Source: Mobula hypostoma
Lineage: Eukaryota
Direction: 5' to 3'
DNA length: 64,000 nucleotides
Assembly: GCF_963921235.1 (NCBI RefSeq)
Contig: NC_086097.1
Coordinates: forward strand, 97,466,001 to 97,530,000
The notes beneath the pieces were generated by a model. That model did not search any database, was not told the origin of the DNA, and was given only the letters and a program-made list of their open reading frames with translations. Each line of letters starts with the position of its first letter. The stretch's first letter is position 1. Below are positions 939 through 43,146 of this stretch, piece by piece. Made by a program: the position numbers and the translations under genes.

Positions 939-2145
939 TGTTGTGTATTTAATATTTCAGTAATATTAAATATTCCGTAATATTCAGAAGTTCTCCATCT
1001 GCCTGCACCTCAGGAAGATTACCACCCTCCCCGCATCACCATCGATGAGGTAGAGCTGAAGACAGTCCACCAGTTCAGCTACCTGGGGTGCACCATCTTG
1101 TCAGATGCCAAGATCGACAAAGAGATTGACAACAGACTGGCAAAGGCAAACAGCGCATTCGGCAGGCTGTACAAAAGAGTCTGGAACAACAAGCATTTGA
1201 AGAAAGGCACAAAGATCAGTGTGTACAGAGCCGTTGTACTGACCACCCTCCTGTACGGCTCCGAGTCATGGTTAAGTGAGGCTATTTGCTATTCATGCAT
1301 TTATACACATAACAGGTTATGAATAGCAAATAGCCTCACTTAAAGTAATATGTTGGTTGACCGTCAACACCTACGACTCCTTGAGCGTTTCCACCAGTGC
1401 TGCCTCCGCACCATCCTCAACATCCACAGGAGGGACTTCGTCACCAACATCGAAGTCCTCGAACAGGCGGAGGTCACCAGCATCGAGGCCATGCTGTTGA
1501 AGACGCAGCTGTGCTGGGCAGGGCACGACTCCAGGATGGAGGATCATCGCCTGCCAAAGATTGTGCTGTATGGCGAACTCTCCACTGGCCACAGTGACAG
1601 AGGGACACCAAAGAAGAGGTACAAGGACTCTCTGAAGAAATCCCTTGGTGCCTGTCACATTGACCATCACCAGTGGTCTAACCTCGCCTCCGATCGCGAG
1701 GCCTGGTGACACACCATTCACCAGTCCGTCTCCTCCTTCGAGAACACACCCAGGGCTGACATTGAGGACAAAAGGAGAAGGAGGAAGAACCGTGACACAG
1801 CAGCACCAAATCCAGAACAGAATTTCCCTTGCAGACACTGTGGTCTGACCTGCCTGTCCCGTATTGGCCTCGTCAGCCACCAGCGAGCCTGCAGCGGACG
1901 TGGGCAGCCCCCTTCCTAAATTTTCGTTCGCAAAGCCAAGCCATGACGAATGTTTGAGTAATCTTGTACATATGTTGGTTGACTAAGCATTTTTGTCCAT
2001 TTTAATAATACATAACAGGTTATGTGTATAAATGCATGAATAGCAAATAGCCTCACTTAAAGTAAACAGGAAGGCAGACTCACATTTCGGAGTCCTGTGT
2101 CTTCCTTTGAATCAGTTTGATATTTTGAAGTTACAACACATAACA
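939..2145 (+). mobile_element. Solo LTR interrupted by an RTE; related to the LTRs of 32046-33504
   Basis: TGTTG...TAACA termini with 5-bp TSD TATTG (934-938 and 2146-2150). Ends resemble the reverse complement of 32046-32298. Confidence 0.75.
986..1949 (+). mobile_element. 5'-truncated RTE-clade LINE (C-terminal region of the RT ORF)
   Basis: Translates FSYLGCTI...KANSAFGRL...LLYGSESW...RLPKIVLYGEL and a terminal C2H2-like motif. Disrupted by an insertion at ~1272-1360. Confidence 0.9.
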
Positions 2146-2307
2146 TATTGGCTGGTAGGTTTACTTTTTGCTGTCATTATTATATCACCACATAAAATAT
2201 TCAGGTAAGCACTATTTAATTGGTGACAGGACATCTGGAAAGCAATTCATTAACAACAAAGGCAAAAAAAAGTCCCCCCAGAGGCTGATCCAGTTTCTGC
2301 TGTTAGA

Positions 2308-3674
2308 GGAACACACATAAAAGTTGCTGGTGAATGCAACAGGCCAGGCAGCATCTCTAGGAAGAGGAAGACTCTCACAGCTATCTGGACTATTCCTCTT
2401 CTCACCCTGTCTCTTGCAAAAACGCCATCCTCTTCTCGCAATTCCTCCGTCTCCGCCGCATCTGCTCTCAGGATGAGGCTTTTCATTCTAGGACGAGGGA
2501 GATGTCTTCCCTTTTTAAAGAAAGGGGCTTCCCTTCCTCCACTATCAACTCTGCTCTTAAACGCATCTCCCCCATTTCACGCACATCTGCTCTCACTCCA
2601 TCCTCCCGCTGCCCCGCTAGGAATAGGGTTCCCCTGGTCCTCACCTACCACCCCACCAGCCTCCGGGTCCAACATATTATTCTCCGTAACTTCCGCCACC
2701 TCCAACGGGATCCCACCACTAAGCACATCTTTCCCTCCCCCCCTCTCTGCATTCCGCAGGGATCGCTCCCTACACAACTCCCTTGTCCATTCGTCCCCCC
2801 CATCCCTCCCCACTGATCGCCCTCCTGGCACTTATCCGTATAAGCGGAACAAGTGCTACACATGCCCTTACACTGCCTCCCTTACCACCATTCAGGGCCC
2901 CAAACAGTCCTTCCAGGTGAGGCAACACTTCACCAGTGAGTCGGCTGGGGTGATATACTGCGTCCGGTGCTCCCGATGTGGCCTTTTATATATTGGCGAG
3001 ACCTGACGCAGACTGGGAGACCGCTTTGCTGAACACCTACGCTCTGTCCGCCAGAGAAAGCAGGATCTCCCAGTGGCCACACATTTTAATTCCACATCCC
3101 ATTCCCATTCTGACATGTCTATCCACGGCCTCCTCTACCGTAAAGATGAAGCCACACTCAGGTTGGAGGAACAACACCTTATATTCCGTCTGGGTAGCCT
3201 CCAACCTGATGGCATGAACATCGACTTCTCTAATTTCCGCTAATGCCCCACCTCCTCCTCGTACCCCATCTGTTACTTATTTTTATACACACATTCTTTC
3301 TCTCACTCTCCTTTTTCTCCCTCTGTCCCTCTACCTATACCCCTTGCCCATCCTCTGGGTCCCTCCACCACCCCCCCTTGTCTTTCTTCCCGGACCTCCT
3401 GTCCCAAGATCCTCTCATATCCCTTTTGTCAATCACCTGTCCAGCTCTTGGCTCCATCCCTCCCCCTCCTGTCTTCTCCTATCATTTTGGATCTCCCCCT
3501 CCCCCTCCCACTTTCAAATCCCTTACTCACTCTTCCTTCAGTTAGTCCTGACGAAGGGTCTCGGCCTGAAACGTTGACTGCACCTCTTCCTAGAGATGCT
3601 GCCTGGCCAGCAGCGTTCACCAGCAACTTTTATGTGTGTTGCTTGAATTTCCAGCATCTTCAGAATTCCTGTTG
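2308..3674 (+). mobile_element. Penelope-like element (RT thumb, GIY-YIG endonuclease, 3' pLTR), 5'-truncated with inverted 5' end
   Basis: VPLVLTYHP and GVIYCVRCSRCGLLYIGET motifs. 12-bp flanking duplication TCTGCTGTTAGA at 2296-2307 and 3675-3686. ~2310-2367 is an inverted copy of ~3583-3640. Confidence 0.92.
3544..3579 (+). ncRNA. Minimal type I hammerhead ribozyme motif in a Penelope pLTR
   Basis: AGTC-CTGACGA-AGG(gtctcgg)CCT-GAAA-CG-TT-GACT. Core and stems I and II are intact, with a palindromic ACGT at stem III. Confidence 0.75.
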
Positions 3675-5629: not shown

Positions 5630-6410
5630 AAGATCTCACAGTTACAGCCAGCGTCAAGTTTAAGCCTCCAAGGTAATCTTGCTGAGAACTGGAAAATATG
5701 GATCCAGAAGTTTGAGCTGTTTTGCACCGCTACCGGCGCAGCTGAAAAGACGGAGAAGGTGCAATGTGCTATGTTTCTGCATGTGGCAGGAGAGAGGCAA
5801 TAAAGGTTTGCAACACGTTTGTCTTCCAAGATGATGAGCAAGATAAAATTGAAGCATTGAAGAAAAAGTTTCAAGGTTACTGCAAACCGAGAAAAAACCT
5901 ACCGTACATCCGACATATGTTTTTCACGAGGGCTCAAGGGCCAATAGAGACCATAGACACCTATGTAACACATTTGAAGAACAAGGCATTAAAGACTGTG
6001 AGTTTGGACAACTGCATGACTCTTTAATACATGACAGGATTGTATGCGGCATACGAGATGATCAAGTGAGAGGCAGGCTATTGAGAGAGGCGGATCTTAC
6101 ATTAGAAAAGGCAACTGATGTTTGCCGTGCCAGCGAGATCACGTCAAGTCAGGTTAAGGTGCTCAATGAAGAGATTGAAGTGCACAAAATAAAAACAGTG
6201 AAACAAAGCCAGCTCCACAGGACGATCAAAAGGAAGTTAACTGCAACAGATGTGGTTATAAACATGGATACAGAAAATGTCCAGCCTTTGGTCAGATATA
6301 CAAGTTATGCCAGAGAAGAAATCACTTTGCAAAGGTATGCAAATCGAAGGAGCATGCAAGGAAAATGCATGCTGTGGAACAGAGTGAGGGCAACAGTGAC
6401 GTGTTCATTG
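5630..6410 (+). pseudogene. Gypsy gag remnant
   Basis: LQGNLAENWKIWIQKFELF...RGRLLREADLTLEKA spread across several frames. Confidence 0.8.
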
Positions 6411-6571
6411 TACACATCCCACCCTGCAAAATCTCATTTCAGGGAGGTAGCACCCCCGCCCCCCGCAACCCCATATTCCCCCCCACCCCCCGGTCGACCT
6501 CCAAGGGCGCATGTATACAGGACATTTGATTATGAAAGAACACAACAATTTATTTGACACATATTGAAACT

Positions 6572-6610
<39 letters not shown>

Positions 6611-7521
6611 ATATATATATTCCTTGTTGAGCATTTTGTTGGCAATCTCAATGCTAATGCAAATAGCTTTTCTATTTCATTTGCAAACTTTCCTTGTAGT
6701 GTGATGTGGCTCTGCTGAAAAGAACTGTGAAATACTTGAGCAGCCTTCCCAGTGATTAGCCTCCCTAATATGTTGTGGTCCCTAAAAGAAATAAAAGCAT
6801 AAGGTGTATCCTTATTATATTGTCTTATGTAATACTTTGTTTAGTGATTTTGTCTAATCTGTAAACCAATCTGTAAACTGTAAACTGGGTATATGCAGAA
6901 AATGTGACATTAAAATACAGTATGTACTTATATATTATCATGGAGTCATTTTTTTAAATTCTATTACAACTTTAAGCACATCTACAGGGAGTTTGGTCTC
7001 ATCACGTATGACATCAATAGAGTAGCTCCTTAGCAGCTGGCCAGCTAGTTTAAGTAACGTTAACTATGCTAATGAACGAATGACACCTGTTAAACTCACC
7101 TCAACATGTCTTTTACAGTCCTAACCCACCATGGGCAATAGAAAAGTCACTGTTGCAAACAGTGCAGCGAGCAACACTGTCATTATTTTGACCCCTATTA
7201 GGCAGAGGTACACTTTAGTGCAGTCTGGGGTGAAGTGCGTTTTATATTTTCTTTTTTTGAAACACTTTGCCATGGCGGTGCAGGACAGAAACTGAACTGA
7301 TGGAGAGACAGAGGTCGACTGCAAAGCCCGCCCGCAGAGAAAACTGGTAGGTCTACTTAGCACAAAGAGACCAATCAGGATGCTCGCTCTTGCTCCTGCT
7401 CCTGCTCCCGCTCTAGCTCTCCCTCACATTTCCGGGATATTGTAAATAATTTGTGGGTGTCAGGGAGCTGCTATTAATATGCGAGAGACTCCCGGAACTT
7501 CCGGGAGAGGTGGGATGTCTG
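6411..7521 (-). mobile_element. Non-autonomous hAT-like DNA transposon with 6-bp TSD, nested in Gypsy
   Basis: TIRs TACACATCCCACC / GGTGGGATGTCTG. TSD TCATTG (6405-6410, 7522-7527). Removing it restores DVFIGTVEV. Carries a zinc-finger transposase N-terminal remnant on the minus strand. Confidence 0.8.
6576..6606. repeat. (AC)n microsatellite
   Basis: Direct dinucleotide run. Confidence 0.95.
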
Positions 7522-9600
7522 TCATTGGCACAGTTGAAGTGGAACAGGAGGTACGCATCAAGAATATTGACAATGCAGAGATGGAGGATGAAGACGATTG
7601 GACTCAAGCTCTGATAATAAACAGGAGGAATGTGACATTTAAGCTTGACCCTGGGGCAAAGTGCAATGTAATGTCAACAGAAACATTCAACTCACTGGAC
7701 ATCAGAGGAAGACTGAGAAAATACACCTGCAAGCTTGTTGCATATTTTGGCCACAAGACGGCGCCACTGGGCAAAAAAGCACTCACCTGTGTGTACAAAG
7801 GTCAACAATACAAGATCGAGTTTGAAATAGTACAGCAACATGTTCCAGCAATACTGGGCAAAGCAACATGCACAAAGCTAGGCCTGGTGAAGCCAATCTA
7901 TGGTGTTGAAAAAGAAAATGACATTCTCAAAGACTTTGATGACCTGTTTTCTGGATTAGGATGTTTACCAGGGAAACACCATATTCAGATTGATCCAACT
8001 ATTGCACCAGTCGTGCATGCCCCAAGAAAGATTCCAGTAGCTCTCATGGATCGAGTAGTGGAGGAGCTACACAAAATGGAACAGATGGGAGTCATAACAA
8101 GACAAATAGAACCGGCCGACTGGGTGAATAGTATGGTGACAGTGGTCACAGAAAAAAAGATGAGGATTTGCATGGATCCACAAGATCTCAACCAAGCCAT
8201 CAAAAAAGAGCACTATCCACTGCTCACGGTTGAAGAGGTTGTCTCCCGCATGCCTAATGCAAAATACTTTTCAGTATTAGACGCAAATCAAGGTTCTGGC
8301 AGATCAAGCTGGATGAAGAAAGTTCCAAATTATGCACTTGCAACATGCCCTTAGGGAGATATCATTTCCTGCGTCTACCCTTTGGCATTTCTTCTGCATC
8401 AGGGTATTCCAGAGATCCGAGGCACAAATGATTGAAGGCCTGGACGGGGTGGTCAACATCATTGATGATTTGCTGATATGGGGTGACACAATTGAGGAAC
8501 ATGATCAGAGACTGAGGAAACTCCTGGAGAGAGCACGTGAATACAACTTAAAACTGAACAAAAGTAACTGTAAGATCAGAACTACAGAGATCAAATACAT
8601 AGGTCATGTACTCAGTGCTGATGGGCTAAAACCAGATGATGAGAAGGTCAGAGCTGTGGTACAGCTACCACTACCAGGAAGACCATGGGAGAAGATTGGC
8701 ACAGATCTCTTTCACTACAATGGTGCAGAATATCTGCTTTGTGTGGACTACTATTCAAAATATCCGGAGATCACCAAGTTAAGTGACACATCCAGTCGAG
8801 GTGACATTACCACAATGAAGTCGACATTCACAAGACATAGTATTCCAGATATTGTCGTTAGTGACAATGGTCCACAATATGCCAGTAGTGAGTTCAGAGG
8901 GTTCTCAGAAAGCTGGGAATTTCAACATGTTACTTCCAGTCCAGGGCACGCTCAGCCTTATGGACAAGCAGAGAGAACTGTACAAACTGTCAAGAACATG
9001 CTCAAGAAGGCACATAGCAGCAACGGTGACCCTTACATTGCTCTGCTTGAATACCGCAATGCACCAATTGAGGGTGAGGGGTTCTCTCCTGCGCAGCTGT
9101 TGATGGGACATTGTCTGAAGTCCAAACTGCCAACATCCACAACTCTACTGACCCCTGAAGGTAATGCTCAAGTACATGACAAGCAAAAGTACAAGCAAAT
9201 AAAGCAAAAGAGCTACTGTGACAGACATACAAGACAGTTGCCAGATCTGCATACAGGTGAAAATGTCAGAGTACAGAGAGAAGACACTTGGCAACCAGCT
9301 GTGGTTGTGAACAGACATCAGCAACCAAGATCCTTCATAGTTCGCACGCCGGATGGAAGAGTCTACAGGAGGAACAGGAAGCATCTGCTGAAGACAGGCG
9401 AGAGCGAGTTTCCACGCACAGATGCACAGGACATTTCCACAGATACAGACATGGAAACAAACGACACCAAGAGTGATGCAGACGGCAAAGACACAGAGGT
9501 CACTGGAGAGACTGACACGGATGAAGGACAAGCACAGTCACAGTTGTATCACACACGGTCTGGGAGACAAGTCAAACTTCCAGCTCGATACAGAGACTAG
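7522..9600 (+). pseudogene. Gypsy pol remnant (protease, RT, integrase; RNase H missing)
   Basis: ORFs 7479-8354 and 8332-9600 with frameshifts near 8290-8410. Confidence 0.9.
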
Positions 9601-20135: not shown

Positions 20136-21822
20136 CAGGGTTTGGCAACCTTTTTGCCTCTGGGGGCCGGATCACGTATTAATGAGCGGACGGTGGGCCA
20201 GATAAACGCCATAAAAAACTTGAAAAATGGGAATTGTCCATTTAAATACATCTAGTTATGTTTTGCCTCAAATTAATGAATAACACATGCTAGAAAATCA
20301 TTTGTGCTTGATCAAGAATGCCAATTAGTAATCAAAGAACTCAGTTTAGTTGCAATTTATTTCAATCAAGGCATCTTTAGAATCTATTAAAACAACACAA
20401 AGAGTCTTTAAATATAAAACATATGAACATGATGCATTGAATGGTGGTAAATTAAGTATAATAAAAAAGAAAATTTTGATGCAAACAGTCGATAAATCAA
20501 TGTGAAACTTGCTGTTTGTTGTCAGACTTGTTGATGCCAAGAGCAAGACATTATCCAGATGGGCATCAGTCAATCTTGTTCTCAAATAGTTCTTGGTGTG
20601 CTTCATTTTTGAAAATAATTGGTCACACAGATTCGTGCTGCCAAACAATGATGCCATCTTTTTTGCATGGTCCACTAAGTTAGGATACTTCCCACTTGGA
20701 TGAATATAATTACTACAGAAGTCAAGCACTGACACATCTTCAGAATTAAATTTCGATCTCAATACGATGTCTCGCTGCATCTCAATCAATTCCATTTGAA
20801 AAATTTCTGATGCAGTGTCCACTTCCACATCTAATGGAGTAGCAAACAGCTTGAACTCATTTACATGCAAGCGAAAATCAGCAAAACAAGATGAAAACTC
20901 TTTTCTCAATTCTTGGACCATATTCACAAAAATGCCTGGATCTTGTACTTTACTTTTTTGAAAAGTGGGAAAATGTGCACAATTTCCTTTTTGAAGCTGG
21001 TACTCCCACAATTGCAACTTCCTTTCAAAGGCCACAATGTGACCATACATCTCATGATGTATCAGCTGATCTTTTCCTTGAAGTTGTTTTGAGACTTCGT
21101 AGCTGGCACGGGTGTTTCCTTCATTGTCACTGCTTTTCTTGGCAAAAAAACGATGTTTGTCTTCTGAAACTAGCCTTCATTCGCTCAACTTCATCTTTCC
21201 TTGCTTGTTCAATAAACTTGTTAAAATTTCCACTATGGCGGGTCTTGTAATGTCGCCTGATATTTGCCACCTTCTTCACAGCAACATTTTCTAGGCAAGT
21301 GAGACAAACTGGTTTTCCAGCTTGCTTGATGAAAAAGTAATCTGGTGTCCAAGTGTCTTGGAAATTTCGGCCCTCAGTGTCTACCTTCCTGCATTTTGCA
21401 TTCATTGCCATTGGAATTTTTTTCTTCGATTTTATTTCGAAACACGAATTATTTCAACGAGTATCATAGCACATGTAAATATCGGGATATTTAGCGTGGA
21501 TTTCTTGTTAAAACACAGTGACGCTGTTTCTGTTTACAAATTTGAACGATCCCATCTGAAAACCTGTGTGTGCACGGAGAGTATCTAATTAATACATATT
21601 AATCAGATAATCTGCCTTCCCGTCATTGGTATATACCAGTGTTTGGTTTGGAACAAAACGGAACCTGGGGCCAGTGTAACAAGATACCATGCATTTCCAT
21701 CAGTGTGGTCGCGTGAAACACTCAGAATAAGGAAAAATTGATCGCGGGCCGGATAAGCATAGTATCCGAATATTTGCTCGTGGGCCGGATCTGGCCCTTG
21801 GGCCGTAGGTTGCCTACCCCTG
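20136..21822 (-). mobile_element. hAT DNA transposon (Buster/Charlie, SPIN/GTF2IRD2-like), internally deleted
   Basis: TIRs CAGGGTTTGGCAACCT / AGGTTGCCTACCCCTG and perfect 8-bp TSD TTTTAGAG. Transposase N-terminus (KPVCLTC...IRRHYKTRH) and C-terminus (FGSTNLCDQLFSKMK...RTRLTD) present; central region absent. Confidence 0.93.
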
Positions 21823-24637: not shown

Positions 24638-27600
24638 TCAATGACATTTATGAGACTGGAATAATACCAGAAGAGATGAAAAAGATCAGTATTTATCATT
24701 CTTCCTAAGAAACCTGGAGCAATAGAATGTGAATTACATAGGACCATAAGTTTAATGAGTCATATCACCAAGATACTTAGAAACATAGAAACATAGAAAA
24801 TAGGTGCAGGAGTAGGCCATTCGGCCCTTCGAGCCTGCACCGCCATTTATTATGATCATGGCTGATCATCCAACTCAGAACCCAGCCTTCCCTCCATACC
24901 CCCTGACCCCTGTAGCCACAAGGGCCATATCTAACTTCCTTTTAAACATAGCTAATGAACTGGCCTCAACAGTTTGCTGTGGCAGAGAATTCCACAGATT
25001 CACCACTCTCTGTGTGAAGAAGTTTTTCCTAACCTCGGTCCTAAAAGGCTTCCCCTCTATCCTCAAACTGTGACCCCTCGTTCTAGACCTCCCCAACATC
25101 GGGAACAATCTTCCCGCATCTAGCCTGTCCAATCTCTTTAGGATCTTATACGTTTCAATCAGATCCCCCCTCAATCTTCTAAATTCCAACGAGTACAAGC
25201 CCAGTTCATCCAGTCTTTCTTCATATGAAAGACCTGCCATCCCAGGAATCAATCTGGTGAACCTTCTTTGTACTCCCTCTATGGCAAAGATGTCTTTCCT
25301 CAGATTAGGGGACCAAAACTGCACACAATACTCCAGGTGTGGTCTCACCAAGGCCTTGTACAACTGCAGTAGTACCTCCCTGCTCCTGTACTCGAATCCT
25401 CTCGCTATAAATGCCAGCATACCATTCGCCTTTTTCACCGCCTGCTGTACCTGCATGCCCACTTTCAATGACTGGTGTATAATGACACCCAGGTCTCGTT
25501 GCACCTCCCCTTTTCCTAATCGGCCACCATTCAGATAATAATCTGTTTTCCTATTTTTGCCACCAAAGTGGATAACTTCACATTTATCCACATTAAATTG
25601 CATCTGCCATGAGTTTGCCCACTCACCCAACCTATCCAAGTCACCCTGCATCCTCTTAGCATCCTCCTCACTGCTAACACTGCCACCCAGCTTCGTGTCA
25701 TCCGCAAACTTGGAGATGCTGCATTTAATTCCCTCATCCAAGTCATTAATATATATTGTAAACAACTGGGGTCCCAGCACTGAGCCTTGCGGTACCCCAC
25801 TAGTCACCGCCTGCCATTCTGAAAAGGTCCCGTTTATTCCCACTCTTTGCTTCCTGTCTGCTAACCAATTCTCCACCCACACCAATACCTTACCCCCAAT
25901 ACCGTGTGCTTTAAGTTTGCACACTAATCTCCTGTGTGGGACCTTGTCAAAAGCCTTTTGAAAATCCAAATATACCACATCCACTGGTTCTCCCCTATCC
26001 ACTCTACTAGTTACATCCTCAAAAAATTCTATGAGATTCGTCAGACATGATTTTCCTTTCACAAATCCATGCTGACTTTGTCCGATCATTTCACCGCTTT
26101 CCAAATGTGCTGTTATCACATCCTTGATAACTGACTCCAGCAGTTTCCCCACCACCGACGTTAGGCTAACCGGCCTATAATTCCCCGGTTTCTCTCTCCC
26201 TCCTTTTTTAAAAAGTGGAGTTACATTAGCCACCCTCCAATCCTCAGGAACTAGTCCAGAATCTAACGAGTTTTGAAAAATTATCACTAATGCATCCACT
26301 ATTTCTTGGGCCACTTCCTTAAGCACTCTGGGATGCAGACCATCTGGCCCTGGGGATTTATCTGCCTTCAATCCCTTCAATTTACCTAACACCACTTCCC
26401 TACTAACATGTATTTCGCTCAGTTCCTCCATCTCACTGGACACTCTGTCCCTTACTATTTCTGGAAGATTATTTATGTCCTCCTTAGTGAAGACAGAACC
26501 AAAGTAATTATTCAATTGGTCTGCCATGTCCTTGCTCCCCATAATCAATTCACCTGTTTCTGTTTGCAGGGGACCTACATTTGTCTTTATCAGTCTTTTC
26601 CTTTTTACATATCTATAAAAGCTTTTACAGTCCGTTTTTATGTTCTCTGCCAGTTTTCTCTCATAATCTTTTTTCCCCTTCCTAATTAAGCCCTTTGTCC
26701 TCCTCTGCTGAACTCTGAATTTCTCCCAGTCCTCAGGTGAGCCACTTTCTCTGGCTAATTTGTATGCTACTTCTTTGGAATTGATACTATCCCTAATTTC
26801 TTTTGTCAGCCACGGGTGCACTACCTTCCTTGATTTATTCTTTTGCCAAACTGGGATGAACAATTGTTGTAGTTCATCCATGCAACCTTTAAATGCCTGC
26901 CATTGCATATCCACCGTCAATCCTTGAAGTGTCATTTGCCAGTCTATACTTCTAAGAAATTTGATGACAAGAGCTAAAGTAAGATACAAGCTGAAATAGG
27001 TAAAGAACAATGTGGTTTTGTGAAAGACAAAGGTACAAGAAACACGATATTGATGTTAAAGATACTATCAGAACAAGCTATTCAAGTGCAAAAAGCTTTG
27101 TTTGTTTTATCAACTACACAAAAGCATTTGATAAAGTGAAGCACAATGAGTTATTTGAAATATTACAGAAAACTCTAGATCTAGATTCAAAAGACCTCCC
27201 CCAATCAGAAATCTGTACTGGGAACAAACTGCAACTGTAAGAATGGATGGAGAAGTGAGTCGATTTACAAAAATCAAGAGAGGTGTTAGACAAAGGTATG
27301 TTTTCTCCCCTGATTTATTTAATGTGTACAGTGAAACAATAGTACAAAAAATAGGAGACATCTTGGGAATCAAAGTTGGCAGTGAAAACATCAGTAATTT
27401 CAGATATGCAGATGACACTGTGTTAATTGCAAGTACGGAGGAAGAACCTCAAAACTTATTTGATATAATTGTTGAAAAAAGTGCGAAAATGGGTCTATCT
27501 ATCAATTGCAAAAAGACAGAATGTATGGTGATATCCAAGAAGAAGGAGAATCCTATCTGCAGGCTGAGAATAAATGGGGAAGATATAAAACAAGTACAGA

Positions 27601-31895: not shown

Positions 31896-32045
31896 CACTT
31901 GTCACTTATATATTTGTAGATGTTTGTCAGTGTGTTTGATAGCAAGTCAAACCTCCTTAGCCTCATAAGAAAGACAGTGTGGCACACTTTCCTTATGATT
32001 GCATCAAAGTGCTGAATCCAGGACAGGAGAGAGGCTGACTCTCTC

Positions 32046-32298
32046 TGTTGCGTTTTGTAACTCCAAAGCATTAAATTAATTGCAAGAAAAAGAAGGGAGC
32101 CCAAGAGAACAGGTCTTAGTTTTGCTTTTTTTCACTTTAAGTGAATGTACCCATATCACATGATGGCATGATGACATATAGCATTTACATACTTTTACAG
32201 ACAATTCGCAAAGCATCACATAGACAACAAAGAAAGCTTAATCAAACAATATATTTGCAATAATACTCAAATACTACTGAAATATTAAATACACAATA
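32046..32298 (-). repeat. 3' LTR
   Basis: Aligns end to end with 33251-33504. Confidence 0.85.
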
Positions 32299-32629
32299 CT
32301 TGTTTAGCCATGCTTAGCCATAAGCTCCAACTCAAGATAGAATGTATCTTAACTTATGTACACACAGTATAAACTATAATACAACTACTATACAGACATA
32401 CAGCATAGTAAATTTTTAATTTTCCCATTAAGGCCTAAAGATTTGACTGCTGTGAAGGATTTCTTATTCTTGTGTGATATTGTCTTTCCTGACAAGGTAG
32501 GTTAATCTACTTGGCTGGTGAGACTTGTGGTTGTGAAAACAATCTCAGGTTTCTGGGGCCTCCTCTGTGGTGCTTGTAGGAGTTGACTCTGAGACTGCAG
32601 GAAGTGATTCTGACAGCTCTGGGCACCTT

Positions 32630-32859
32630 TCTTTTTCTTATTCTCATTTATGCATTTTGATCTTGGGAGGATCCATTTAGTTCACTGGAGTATTCTCTTA
32701 TTAAACCTATTGTTCCCTTTATGATCTGATCTCTCCTCTTAGCTTCCTCATCCACAAAATCATCTGATGAATACTCTATTGTTGTATCTCCATTGACTCC
32801 TTTCTTTTCGGCCTTCCATTCATCCAGCTGGGCTTTGGTCCTTGCATCTACTTTTACAA
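32630..32859 (-). pseudogene. RBM25: RBM25-derived fragment (segment at and after the end of the RRM)
   Basis: VKVDARTKAQLDEWKAEKK...VDEEAKRRDQIIKGTIGLIREYSSELNGSSQD matches recalled vertebrate RBM25 VKVDAKTKAQLDEWKAKKK...LDEETKRRDQMIKGAIEVLIREYSSELNAPSQE. Has a premature stop. Confidence 0.85.
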
Positions 32860-33028
32860 CTCCTAAGCAAATTGTAAGCTTTTCCACCCAATGCACTCAG
32901 CAAAATTGGTACTTGTTTCTCATTGGCTATTCAATTTGCTTAAAATATTGCTCAATTAGCACAATATACATATTCCAGTTATCTATTGTGTAATCAAACG
33001 CATCAATTTTTCTGATGTAGCCAGCCAC
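32860..33028 (-). pseudogene. Gypsy gag N-terminal remnant
   Basis: VAGYIRKIDAFDYTIDNWNMYIVLIEQYF, then a frameshift, then IANEKQVPILLSALGGKAYNLLRS. Confidence 0.75.
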
Positions 33029-33240
33029 TTTTTTTAATGATACTTACTGTTTATGGACCTGTGAATTCACCCATTTTCTGCCTTCTTTTTTAACTCAGCA
33101 GTCTCTGACTGCTTTTGCGGAGAAAACATGCTATGCTGCTTTCTTTTACTTAACTGTTTCTTGCTGTGCTTTTTCAAAGACTTGAATATCCATTGCACTT
33201 CAACAGGTAGGTCACCATCTCGGGTTCATTTTAAATATAT

Positions 33241-33250
33241 CTCGTCACCA
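33241..33250 (-). promoter_or_regulatory. Primer binding site, tRNA-Ser(GCU)-like
   Basis: TGGTGACGAG directly after the 5' LTR; one mismatch to TGGCGACGAG. Confidence 0.65.
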
Positions 33251-33504
33251 GTAATGCTTTGTAACTCCAAAACATTAAACTAATTGCAAGAAAAAAGGTG
33301 GGAGCCCAAGAGAATGGGTCTTTATTTTGTTTTCTTTTACTTTAAATGAGGAGCACCCATATCACATACTGGTGTGAAGATGTATGCCATTTACAATCTT
33401 TTACAGATAACTCATAATGCATTATGTAAACAACAAAGAATTCTTAATCAAACAATATATTTGTAATATTACTCAAATACTACTGAAATGCTAATTACTC
33501 AACG
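33251..33504 (-). repeat. 5' LTR
   Basis: Aligns with 32046-32298 and is flanked by the PBS and the TSD. Confidence 0.85.
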
Positions 33505-34271
33505 CTCTCTGCTGCTGATCCATCAATGTAGTTTGCTTACTTTCACCCTCCTTCTCCTTCCTGAAGTCAAAAGTCTGCTATTTAGTTTTGCTGACATTGA
33601 GTGTGAGGTTGTTGTTGCGGTGCCACTCAACCAGGTGACCAATCTTGTTCTGGTAAGCCGCCTCCTCACTACCCACCTGTGATTTGTCCAACAACAGTAG
33701 TGGAATTAGAGAATTAGAAGAGCAAGGCTTCAGGTTAAGCTTTAACATAAACTACAAGCAAAGCATTAAGTAATAGTATAGAGTTAGTACGTATTTGGAA
33801 GTGGTGCAGAAGTAAAAACAGTCTTATTTTCTTATTATTGAAAGGAGGAGCAGGTCTGCTCTTGCCTTTTTTGTGTTTTAATGTAGGTCCCTTAGAGAGT
33901 AAAATATGAGAAATTGCATTGGGGAATAAATGAACAGACACGCAATTAGAATATTTCAAAGTTTCAAAGGTCAAGTTTAATGTCAGAGAAATGTATACAA
34001 TATACATCCTGAAATGCTTTTCCTTTGCAAAACATCCGCAAAAAAAAGAGAAGTGCCCCATAAAATGAATGACAGTTAAACATGAGAACCTCAAAGTCCC
34101 CCCCAGCTCCCCCCACCCACGTGTAAGCAGCAGCGAGCAACAATCCCCCTTCCCCCACCAGCAAAAATAAAAAGCACATCAGTACAATCACCGAGCCCAA
34201 GCGTCTGCTAAGCGATAGCAAAGACACAGACCAGTCACCCCAAAAACTTCGCATTTCATGCGAAGGATGGT

Positions 34272-38480: not shown

Positions 38481-40991
38481 TCAGATTGAAATGTTTGATA
38501 AATGCTAAAAATGCAGGCTACAGACCCTCACCAAGGATTTGTACATTTTAGGCCTTTTTCTCTGCAGTATTTCAACAGCACTTGAAGATCCAGCTTTACA
38601 GTGGTTCAGGATTAACTGAGGCAGTTTTCACCAGTCTTCTGTATATTATACAGAAGCATGACTCAGTATTAAATAGCCATAGTTGAGTACATCAACTACC
38701 TTTTAACAGAAAGTTCCATGTTATTAACTAATGAAGTGATTAAAATTAACCGCATAAATAATTTTATTGAATAGTTTTCCATGTACTTATAAACTGGTCA
38801 AGATGGTGCCAGCATACAATGCTCCCTCGGTTGACATGTCCAGATAGCTCATAAAAATGCCTTTTTTACTTCTTTTACGTCTGTTTTTCACCTTTAACGT
38901 GTTTCTGGGACTGTTAAGAGTTACAGCCTGTGATTTACAATTTGGAAATCTTTTGAGTGATCCAGCGCTTTGCTGTCTCCAAGATGATTCCAGGAAGCGA
39001 GTGCATACTCGGACGGCCTTGATGCGAAGAAACTCCAAGATGGGGCGTAAGCCGATTAAGGCATCCATTAATCACCAACTAAAACATCAAGGAAGGTTGA
39101 GACATTGAGGTGATTGTGGAAGGTAAGTGAGAGTTCAGTGCCGACTGCCTTCCTTTTGATCGCTGCTGAGAAGGAGTCTGTGAGTGGCCTATCGCTGTGT
39201 GGCAGGTGGGTAGGCCTCTCTGCCTTGTGTGGTGTCCCCCTCTTTCGATGAGTGTTGTTGATATCAAAGGATGGTATCACGGTTCTGTGCTCATGGATTG
39301 GACTATTGCGTTTATGGACCATGCACTTATTCAAACTTAGAGTTTTTATATTGTGTTTTTTAAAATCACTTGTTCCTTTGCCATTTTGTTGTGCAAGGGG
39401 AGAGTGTTTCAGGGTTAATATTCTGTTGTATTTTGTTAGCTTTTTGTGTGGGGGAGGGTTTTTTTGGAGGGGTCAATGTTCCTGTTCCATTTAGTGCAGG
39501 GGGGGGTTTTGGGGGGTTGATAATCAAGGATGCCATTCTTTTTTGTGGGGTGGGGGGTTTGATGTTTCTCTCTGAACATCTTTCATGGCTATCTGGAGAA
39601 GACAAATTTCAGAGTTGTATATGGATACATGCTTTAATAATAAAAGAACCATTGAACCTTTAAACTTTAGGCTGTAGGTCACAAAATCATGCAATGGACT
39701 ATTTGGCCTATTGCATTCCTTGAAACAGAAATCCAATTAGTTCCATTGTATTTCTATCATTCTTTTCAATCATATATTCAAATGCCTTTGGATTAAGATC
39801 TCCAGGATCTTTTCAGCCAGTATGTACATTCCAAATAAAAATTTGCTCTGCAAAAATATACAACTCCATGATTTCCTTACCAATCTTAAGGAAATTTTCC
39901 TAGTTATCATTCCTCTTACTATGGAAATAGTCACTCCTTCTTTTATCACTACTTTGAATAACCAATTCCCCATAACAACATCAGCTCAAAATGATGCCAT
40001 CCGCATGTCTATTTCTATACAGAACTCTCACAAGACTGGTACAGTACTATCCTGGTACAGACTGTATTCTCCTATTTCCTGATATCAAAGGGAATGGTGT
40101 GCAGGACTGAACACATTACTCCAGATGAGGTCAACTAATGATTTATAATGATTTTCACAACTCCTTTGCTTTTGTTCTCCTTGTGTTCTTTGACAATCCA
40201 GAATCCCATATGCTTTAAATTTTTGAAAAAGGATTTATTTATTTACTTCTAGATGAATCTGTCTTTGCTTCCTTTTCAACTTTAGTCTATAGTTTCCTCT
40301 CTTTCAAAAATACATCAGTCAGAATTTCTTTTTATTTTACAACACTGATTAGCATCTTATTATGCAAAGTGCCTGCAACAGTATGATCAAAAAGCATATT
40401 CTAAATTTACACTAATTTACAACAGTTGAAAAATGTTCAAAACATGCACACTTCCTCTCGAAGAGCACATATGAAGTCAGAACACAGAACTGTTAGTATT
40501 CACTTGTCACAAGATAATGAACCTGATTCTGACCATGAGCAGCAAGTAATAACCTCTTGGATGGAGGATGAATAATTGGTAAAGGACTCACAGAATAGGG
40601 CTAAAGTTTAAAGAAAATTCATTTTTGGTACTATTCTCTAGTTTTTAGGACCATCAACAAATTTTCATGTTTTGCTGAAAATCTAGATAAAACAGGGGAC
40701 AACTCAGCTGGTCAGGGAGCACTTGTGGAAAAAGAAACATCCAAATCAATATCCCACATTATCTGAAACAAAGTATCACAATTATTACTTGGGTTTTAGA
40801 AAAGTGAGGGGTGATTTTATTGAGCATAAAGGATCTTTTCAAAGTACAACAGGGTAGATGTTGAGATGTTTCCAATAGCAGCAGATCTCGAACAAGGCGA
40901 CATAGTTATGAGATAAGGAATCAGTCATATAAAACTAAGGCGAACAAGAATTTCTTCTTGTTGACAGAGCACAGAGGGTTTTAGAGCTAAA

Positions 40992-43146
40992 TTGACGGTG
41001 GATATGCAATGGCAAGCATTTAAAGGTTGCATGGATGAACTACAACAATTGTTCATCCCAGTTTGGCAAAAGAATAAATCAAGGAAGGTAGTGCACCCGT
41101 GGCTGACAAGAGAAATTAGGGATAGTATCAATTCCAAAGAAGTAGCATACAAATTAGCCAGAGAAAGTGGCTCACCTGAGGACTGGGAGAAATTCAGAGT
41201 TCAGCAGAGGAGGACAAAGGGCTTAATTAGGAAGGGGAAAAAAGATTATGAGAGAAAACTGGCAGAGAACATAAAAACGGACTGTAAAAGCTTTTATAGA
41301 TATGTAAAAAGGAAAAGACTGATAAAGACAAATGTAGGTCCCCTGCAGACAGAAACAGGTGAATTGATTATGGGGAGCAAGGACATGGCAGACCAATTGA
41401 ATAATTACTTTGGTTCTGTCTTCACTAAGGAGGACATAAATAATCTTCCAGAAATAGTAAGGGACAGAGGGTCCAGTGAGATGGAGGAACTGAGTGAAAT
41501 ACATGTTAGTAGGGAAGTGGTGTTAGGTAAATTGAAGGGATTGAAGGCAGATAAATCCCCAGGGCCAGATGGTCTGCATCCTAGAGTGCTTAAGGAAGTA
41601 GCCCAAGAAATAGTGGATGCATTAGTGATAATTTTTCAAAACTCGTTAGATTCTGGACTAGTTCCTGAGGATTGGAGGGTGGCTAATGTAACCCCAATTT
41701 TTAAAAAAGGAGGGAGAGAGAAACCGGGGAATTATAGACCGGTTAGCCTAACGTCGGTGGTGGGGAAACTGCTGGAGTCAGTTATCAAGGATGTGAAAAC
41801 AGCACATTTGGAAAGCGGAGAAATGATCGGACAAAGTCAGCATGGATTTGTGAAAGGAAAATCATGTCTGACGAATCTCATAGAATTTTTTGAGGATGTA
41901 ACTAGTAGAGTGGATAGGGGAGAACCAGTGGATGTGGTATATTTGGATTTTCAAAAGGCTTTTGACAAGGTCCCACACAGGAGATTAGTGTGCAAACTTA
42001 AAGCACACGGTATTGGGGGTAAGGTATTGGTGTGGGTGGAGAATTGGTTAGCAGACAGGAAGCAAAGAGTGGGAATAAACGGGACCTTTTCAGAATGGCA
42101 GGCGGTGACTAGTGGGGTACCGCAAGGCTCAGTGCTGGGACCCCAGTTGTTTACAATATATATTAATGACTTGGATGAGGGAATTAAATGCAGCATCTCC
42201 AAGTTTGCGGATGACACGAAGCTGGGTGGCAGTGTTAGCCGTGAGGAGGATGCTAAGAGGATGCAGGGTGACTTGGATAGGTTGGGTGAGTGGGCAAACT
42301 CATGGCAGATGCAATTTAATGTGGATAAATGTGAAGTTATCCACTTTGGTGGCAAAAATAGGAAAACAGATTATTATCTGAATGGTGGCCGATTAGGAAA
42401 AGGGGAGGTGCAACGAGACCTGGCTGTCATTATACACCAGTCATTGAAAGTGGGCATGCAGGTACAGCAGGCAGTGAAAAAGGCGAATGGTATGCTGGCA
42501 TTTATAGCGAGAGGATTCGAGTACAGGAGCAGGGAGGTACTACTGCAGTTGTACAAGGCCTTGGTGAGACCACCCCTGGAGTATTGTGTGCAGTTTTGGT
42601 CCCCTAATCTGAGGAAAGACATCTTTGCCATAGAGGGAGTACAAAGAAGGTTCACCAGATTGATTCCTGGGATGGCAGGACTTTCATATGAAGAAAGACT
42701 GGATGAACTGGGCTTGTACTCGTTGGAATTTAGAAGATTGAGGGGGGATCTGATTGAAACGTATAAGATCCTAAAGGGATTGGACAGGCTAGATGCAGGA
42801 AGATTGTTCCCAATATTGGGGAAGTCCAGAACGAGGGGTCACAGTTTGAGGATAGAGGGGAAGCCTTTTAGGACCGAGATTAGGAAAAACTTCTTCACAC
42901 AGAGAGTGGTGAATCTGTGGAATTCTCTGCCACAGGAAACTGTTGAGGCCAGTTCATTGGCTATGTTTAAGAGGGAGTTAGATATGGCCCTTGTGGCTAC
43001 AGGGGTCAGGGGGTATGGAGGGAAGGCTGGGGCGGGGTTCTGAGTTGGATGATCAGCCATGATCATAATAAATGGCGGTGCAGGCTCGAAGGGCCGAATG
43101 GCCTACTCCTGCACCTATTTTCTATGTTTCTATTTTCTATGTTTCT
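40992..43146 (+). mobile_element. Young 5'-truncated CR1 LINE with uninterrupted RT-containing ORF2 segment
   Basis: 683-codon open frame nearly identical to 24779-26945; (TTTCTATG)n tail; inserted in an older CR1 3' end. Confidence 0.96.

Follow-up and report, generated by a model that had tools for sequence, protein, structure and literature searches.

The closest described systems are the LTR-mediated retrocopies of animals, for which Tan et al. 2016 (PMC5131818; here and below, the portion of that paper drawn on in this study) give a median microsimilarity of 6 bp. In these retrocopies a partial spliced mRNA replaces an internal part of the element's open reading frame, with microsimilarity at both switch points; both LTRs are kept, a target duplication is present, poly(A) is absent, the cargo lies in sense and often in frame, and the product may be retroposed further as a nonautonomous element whose copies share their switch points. 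The unit described here lies in a window of 64 kb (the whole stretch of DNA that was analyzed), and its family has the same properties: the introns of the host gene RBM25 are lost, the overlaps at the two switch points measure 7 and 9 nt (the 5' point being deleted in the window copy), both LTRs are kept, a target duplication is seen in the window, the sense-oriented cargo has no poly(A), and the switch point is shared by 252 junctions. However, whereas the loci of Tan et al. are young, with a single insertion site or a few (nine retrocopies occupy 18 sites, and the fly cases few), the RBM25 family is old, comprises hundreds of copies by count and about 2,000 by estimate, and has diversified into deletion subfamilies.

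Two further systems treated in the same paper (PMC5131818) resemble the family in part. Maize Bs1 is likewise an LTR element with host exons, in which all copies share the switch points and secondary retroposition has occurred, but it has 1 to 5 copies and three parent genes, whereas a single gene is the parent of the RBM25 family, whose copies outnumber those of Bs1 by two to three orders of magnitude. HERV-K with FAM8A1 is another vertebrate case of an LTR element that took up a host mRNA; it shows microsimilarity at the fusion points and is now a pseudogene. In contrast to this retrovirus-type element of primates, the RBM25 carrier is a Gypsy element, likely of a cartilaginous fish, and became a major repeat family.

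Anatomy and cargo of the window unit

The 5' LTR, the primer-binding site, about 55 codons of gag, and the 3' LTR all lie on the minus strand where an earlier note, made from the sequence alone, had placed them (Table 1). In alignment, the two LTRs share 81.6% identity over 245 nt (divergence, 0.177). The same note had read a pol-like C terminus past about 32630, and this tail does match RT-bearing sister elements at 70 to 81%; its similarity to the C terminus of a fish Gypsy polyprotein is weak and was obtained in 4 of 20 family copies (E values of 0.004 to 0.06). Also in line with that note, none of the open reading frames examined preserves a fusion frame in the window copy, and Pfam found no domain in its RBM25 peptide or gag piece. 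The window unit is a dead, internally deleted copy of an old Gypsy LTR family and adds little beyond what the family itself tells.

Table 1. Features of the window unit, in order along the minus strand.
Feature	Position	Strand	Remarks
Target-site duplication, upstream copy	33505..33509		GAGAG on minus (CTCTC on plus)
5' LTR	33251..33504	-	About 253 nt; TG...CA ends decayed
Primer-binding site	33241..33250	-	Complementary to the tRNA-Ser(GCT) 3' end, 1 mismatch
Gypsy gag, first ~55 codons	32862..33028	-	Start codon mutated, 1 frameshift, stops
Private deletion breakpoint	32858..32861	-	1.3-1.4 kb gone; 2-nt TT overlap; not the capture site
RBM25 exon D, last ~71 nt	32789..32859	-	Of the RRM, only the last strand
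RBM25 exon E, first ~140 nt	32649..32788	-	Joined to D without the 4.8-kb intron
A/G-rich exon G/H remnant	32628..32648	-	Apparently left by the subfamily's shared deletions; ends in the 3' capture microhomology
pol C-terminal tail (after integrase)	32435..32627	-	1 frameshift; runs up to the stop codon
3' untranslated region	32299..32434	-	Family's polypurine tract degraded in this copy
3' LTR	32046..32298	-
Target-site duplication, downstream copy	32041..32045		GAGAG on minus (CTCTC on plus)

The unit sits inside a LINE fragment. The CTCTC duplication that bounds it had been taken to mean that it integrated as one piece, and the duplication is real, because three paralogous LINE copies aligned through the target site (L178, L174, and L146) carry this site once, with at most one base changed; a first alignment had no match reaching the junction, which softer scoring reached. 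Duplications of 5 bp, perfect or with one mismatch, are also found at L175, L039, L047, L145, and L181, while at several other family copies the target duplication is not recognizable. L175 has inserted into a LINE of this type too, at a distance of about 7 nt from the corresponding position, by chance or through a target preference. Two features of Ty3/Gypsy elements are present in the family, namely, the tRNA primer-binding site and the polypurine tract. The former (33250-33241 in the window) differs from the 3' end of the host tRNA-Ser(GCT) by one CpG-type change, and the primer-site pattern has 16 genome matches, of which all three that were checked are tRNA-Ser(GCT); the latter is present in most of the family copies shown.

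The earlier note had assigned the cargo to RBM25, and the protein search bears this out. The peptide encoded by 32860-32651 matches 18 proteins among 52 candidates; 15 of them carry a source name, which is RBM25 in 12 cases and "hypothetical protein" in 3, and the best match is a Heptranchias protein with 80% identity (E value of 1e-24). At the DNA level, the cargo is identical to the genome's own spliced RBM25 at 185 of 203 nt (91%). The comparison with this gene that the earlier note proposed as a check on an mRNA origin gave a clear answer, in that exons D and E are joined at 32789/32788 and the 4.8-kb intron is absent. Since RRM_1 occupies residues 56 to 124 of the Heptranchias protein P0001 and the window cargo begins at residue 125, almost the whole domain lies outside this copy. 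Across the family, the cargo follows the spliced order A-B-C-D-E, to which long forms add F-G-H, so that up to eight junctions are spanned. The cargo lies in sense orientation, and transcripts from the 5' LTR would therefore be RBM25-sense, not complementary to RBM25 as had been suggested.

The end of RBM25 that encodes PWI matches a single locus (G000:C1, near 99.8 Mb), indicating one parent gene, at a distance of 2.3 Mb from the window; its exons Z and A to H were mapped with GT-AG ends. The captured mRNA included a 48-nt in-frame exon (G000:C1:99832633-99832586, L058) that is present in Heptranchias P0001, absent from the bony-fish proteins shown, and matched by 38 of 40 copies. Together with the best protein match, this exon suggests that the host is a cartilaginous fish. 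Two family LTRs (G000:C1:99876630-99876909 and 99906403-99906638) lie on the strand opposite to RBM25, about 35 and 65 kb upstream of its first mapped coding exon.

Other elements populate the window. A second, more distant Gypsy element with remnants of protease, RT, and integrase occupies 5853-9600 on the plus strand. Two long reverse-transcriptase frames of LINEs (726 and 692 codons), which are nearly identical to each other, apparently young, and presumably CR1-like, lie at 24875-27055 (minus) and 40965-43043 (plus), and broken DNA-transposase-like frames, which we take to be hAT-like, lie at 20346-21453 (minus).

The chimeric family and its RT-bearing sisters

In a DNA search (40 of 14,304 candidates scored), nearly all strong matches other than the window itself start at the RBM25 boundary and extend via the tail towards the 3' LTR at 74 to 81% identity. 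Fuller copies measure 2.9 to 3.4 kb and consist of LTR, primer-binding site, gag, zinc knuckle, protease, spliced RBM25, pol tail, polypurine tract, and LTR, the RBM25 exons standing where RT, RNase H, and integrase would be. Exact 18-mers, picked after copies had been seen, matched the genome 252 times for the pol/RBM25 junction, 172 times for exon D/E, and 260 times for the short-form deletion junction, with 0 matches for the controls in each case; in all 40 fetched of the 252 matches (all on contigs C1 and C2), exon B continues past the junction. The suspicion that the unit might represent a multicopy, nonautonomous LTR family was therefore well founded. On the five contigs fully covered by all three motif searches there are 216 distinct loci, and the overlaps between motifs (5, 11, and 4) yield estimates of 2,100 to 4,000 copies with lower 95% bounds of 1,100 to 1,600. 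We estimate the family at about 2,000 copies, with a rough range of 1,000 to 3,000. A figure of about 1,000 derived from 5 of 20 copies was discarded as biased, those copies having been chosen as the best preserved.

Three forms can be distinguished: a long form that keeps exons F to H, an intermediate form without F, and the commonest, short form, which keeps about 30 nt of G/H. The deletion junctions are common to hundreds of loci, which argues for successive source elements. A protein search for a junction-spanning frame, confined to near lengths, returned five short unnamed matches and no annotated fusion, and a lookup of relatives by place showed nothing. One sequencing run, guessed to be RNA, has family-like contigs, which show neither strand nor level.

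The family has sisters that retain pol. A sister motif that reads on into pol has 479 exact genome matches (controls, 0); it contains the 5' 7-mer of the capture point by design, and the independent part of the result is that the host exon carries this 7-mer too. All 20 fetched sisters have pol-type sequence for at least a few codons past the motif. The majority can be placed on the RT region of P0021, and in many cases LTR, gag, and tail are common to sister and chimeras. P0021 and P0020 are fish Ty3/Gypsy polyproteins annotated as K02A2.6-like, to which gag is 59 to 60% identical. Like these, the sisters have a single gag-protease-RT-RNase H-integrase layout with a zinc knuckle and a similar C terminus; the sister copies are colinear with P0021, whose Pfam order (protease, RT, RNase H, integrase) is that of Ty3/Gypsy elements. 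In contrast, the chimeras have RBM25 in place of residues about 412 to about 1250 of P0021. Every fetched sister is decayed, and no intact autonomous element was seen among them. We take the Gypsy family to resemble the Mag clade.

Comparison of chimeras, sisters, and host gene locates both capture points. The 5' point is marked by 7 nt, TGCCACA, that occur both in pol and at the end of host exon Z; here the chimera comes in as pol and goes out as RBM25, whereas 20 of 20 sisters stay pol-type. The 3' point is marked by the 9-nt GAGAAGAAA, which occurs in host exon H as well as in the pol tail and is exact in four of the nine sisters with an alignable tail start and nearly so in three more. Of the microhomologies proposed earlier, the purine-rich one at the 3' junction thus stands, while the 5' TT belongs to a deletion breakpoint, the true 5' overlap being the 7-nt TGCCACA. 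The part of pol replaced between the two points measures about 2.5 kb and extends from just past the protease to beyond the integrase. The reading frame is kept at the 5' join, as seen in a real copy (L047) that reads 113 codons across it without a stop, and the 3' join is out of frame with pol.

Age, selection, and origin

LTR-LTR divergence has a mean of 0.19 in 12 chimeric copies (pairs with at least 120 alignable nt) and a median of 0.19 in five sisters. Pairwise distances range from 0.18 to 0.22 within and between the short, long, and sister groups, and trees are star-like, which argues for one old burst together with the helpers; a burst soon after capture is the simplest reading. Trees of the protease region (68 rows) and the tail (56 rows), which left out copies too short or too divergent to project, contain only two supported groups of at least four rows, too few to yield an order of events. 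Because they are almost without supported structure, the case for a single origin rests on the shared junctions rather than on a clade. In 34 of 40 copies the alignment covers at least 300 nt; their diversity is 0.187 at 0-fold and 0.165 at 4-fold sites (ratio, 1.14; 95% interval, 0.95 to 1.36), and the copies decay neutrally. With this ratio, and because the window copy is out of frame and without the RRM, the unit does not qualify as a functional retrogene, i.e., an intact frame under purifying selection.

We consider it very probable that the family goes back to a single capture, in which two microhomology-guided switches onto copackaged RBM25 mRNA were followed by copying through the sisters' enzymes. 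RBM25 mRNA would have been copackaged in a Gypsy particle, where RT would have jumped onto it at the 9-nt overlap and returned at the 7-nt overlap. The product, keeping LTRs, primer-binding site, polypurine tract, gag, and protease, could then have been copied by the RT and integrase of the sisters. The long form would have given rise to the short form through the shared deletions of exons F and G-H, and the private deletion of the window copy would have come last. LTR-mediated capture as such had already been proposed in the earlier note, and the replacement of pol by the cargo, between flanks common to RT-bearing sisters, agrees with it.

The place of capture given in that note, a template switch onto RBM25 mRNA at about 32860, is a different matter. 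The join between gag and RBM25 found there has a single place in the genome when up to 2 mismatches are allowed, other copies hold 1.3 to 1.4 kb at this place (the rest of gag, zinc knuckle, protease, capture point, and exons A to C), and three organisms have sequencing runs in which contigs that end at 32859 go on into upstream exon D. Because the join is genome-unique and other copies and contigs continue upstream, it is a private deletion of later date, with an overlap of 2 nt, through which both the RRM and the capture site were lost. In run X1, possibly the assembly's own sample, one contig crosses the join with 30 and 48 nt on its two sides (the rule being 31 nt), and among the pieces listed for organism B no contig bridges it; an organism B contig does cross the boundary between 5' LTR and flank without difference, and the insertion therefore predates the split of organisms A and B. 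In L008 (G000:C64:30861799-30862745), an independent gag-to-exon-D deletion ends about 6 nt from the window breakpoint, and this landing spot in exon D is possibly a favored deletion end. A double template switch that produced the short element directly, with its 5' switch at 32860, would account for the abrupt join with its TT overlap and might draw on the separate join of L008, but the 810 nt downstream in the window match a family having 1.3 to 1.4 kb more upstream, and the window copy has the family's 3' capture point, fitting the short-form junction at 13 of 18 nt and the host exon at 9 of 18; we regard such an origin as highly improbable. The unit instead reads as a short-form copy, the 3' side of which would also have been shortened after capture, by deletions shared across the subfamily. 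A processed pseudogene of RBM25, made by LINE enzymes and inserted later into a Gypsy element, has a vanishingly small probability, even though LINE reverse transcriptases abound in this genome: the cargo is an internal piece of mRNA that replaces about 2.5 kb of pol instead of interrupting it, with microhomology at both ends. Neither a poly(A) tail nor a target duplication of its own was found around it, nor any retained intron (the signs that the earlier note had named as fatal to its proposal), and anchoring at the mRNA 3' end is likewise missing, the 3' end of RBM25 being single-copy.

Repair or conversion of one genomic Gypsy copy with RBM25 cDNA at the DNA level, followed by amplification of the chimera, would yield the same end product with microhomology, in sequence indistinguishable from a template switch, and capture of spliced-mRNA cDNA at breaks is reported in the part of PMC4516963 consulted. 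Yet internal replacement with two-sided microsimilarity is the standard signature of LTR template switching in the account of PMC5131818, and copackaging offers a direct route, so that we think this origin quite unlikely. A different question is whether the cargo was useful, in the sense that a Gag-protease-RRM fusion protein of the founder aided its spread and was under selection while the element was mobile. Such a protein would fit the in-frame 5' capture with its 113 codons in L047, a cargo that holds the whole RRM, short-form lengths that stay in frame with the long form in 11 of the 21 copies measured, and the share of chimeras, roughly a third of the junction-bearing family (252 versus 479 exact matches). 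It would also fit the 27 majority differences of the cargo from the present host gene, which outside CpG comprise 22 synonymous and 2 nonsynonymous changes. However, host-side synonymous change alone predicts about 13 to 15 of these (12.6 expected per lineage; P of about 0.01 to 0.04) and so accounts for most of them, leaving a mild, only partly explained excess and some room for selection on the cargo. Moreover, a capture is in frame by chance in 1 of 3 cases, the frame of pol is not continued across the 3' junction, in-frame deletions are favored where repeats come in multiples of three, the copies diverge neutrally, and short nonautonomous elements often outnumber their helpers without any function, according to the part of PMC5131818 used here. 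Taken together, selection on the fusion protein appears very unlikely. The bolder proposal that the RNA-binding domain of an in-frame Gag-protease-RBM25(RRM) polyprotein in the founder drove the growth of one capture to about a third of its Gypsy family, and that such families may be a main, overlooked source of retrocopies in cartilaginous fish, is in our view unlikely.

Significance for retrocopies and genome annotation

Under the favored reading of a single template-switching capture, the mechanism is the one already known from Tan et al. 2016 (in the portion of PMC5131818 drawn on), and what is new is the scale and the subfamily history. A search of the openly accessible literature found no paper on an RBM25-bearing Gypsy family. 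In a 2026 preprint that covers 244 vertebrate genomes (10.64898/2026.06.26.734816), the number of retrocopies is linked to non-LTR elements; "RBM" is absent from its main text, and the top retrocopy parents that it gives for cartilaginous fish are MIPOL1, SUDS3, SDF2L1, SLU7, and ZNF276, not housekeeping genes. The retrocopies of these five genes might be other LTR-borne cargo families.

The family has kept an old splice form of RBM25, including the 48-nt exon that is also present in a shark. Its degenerate RBM25-like sequence amounts to about 1 Mb and will interfere with annotation, with the mapping of reads, and with counts of retrocopies. More generally, when a conserved host mRNA is captured by an LTR element, a single event of this kind can grow into a major vertebrate repeat family.
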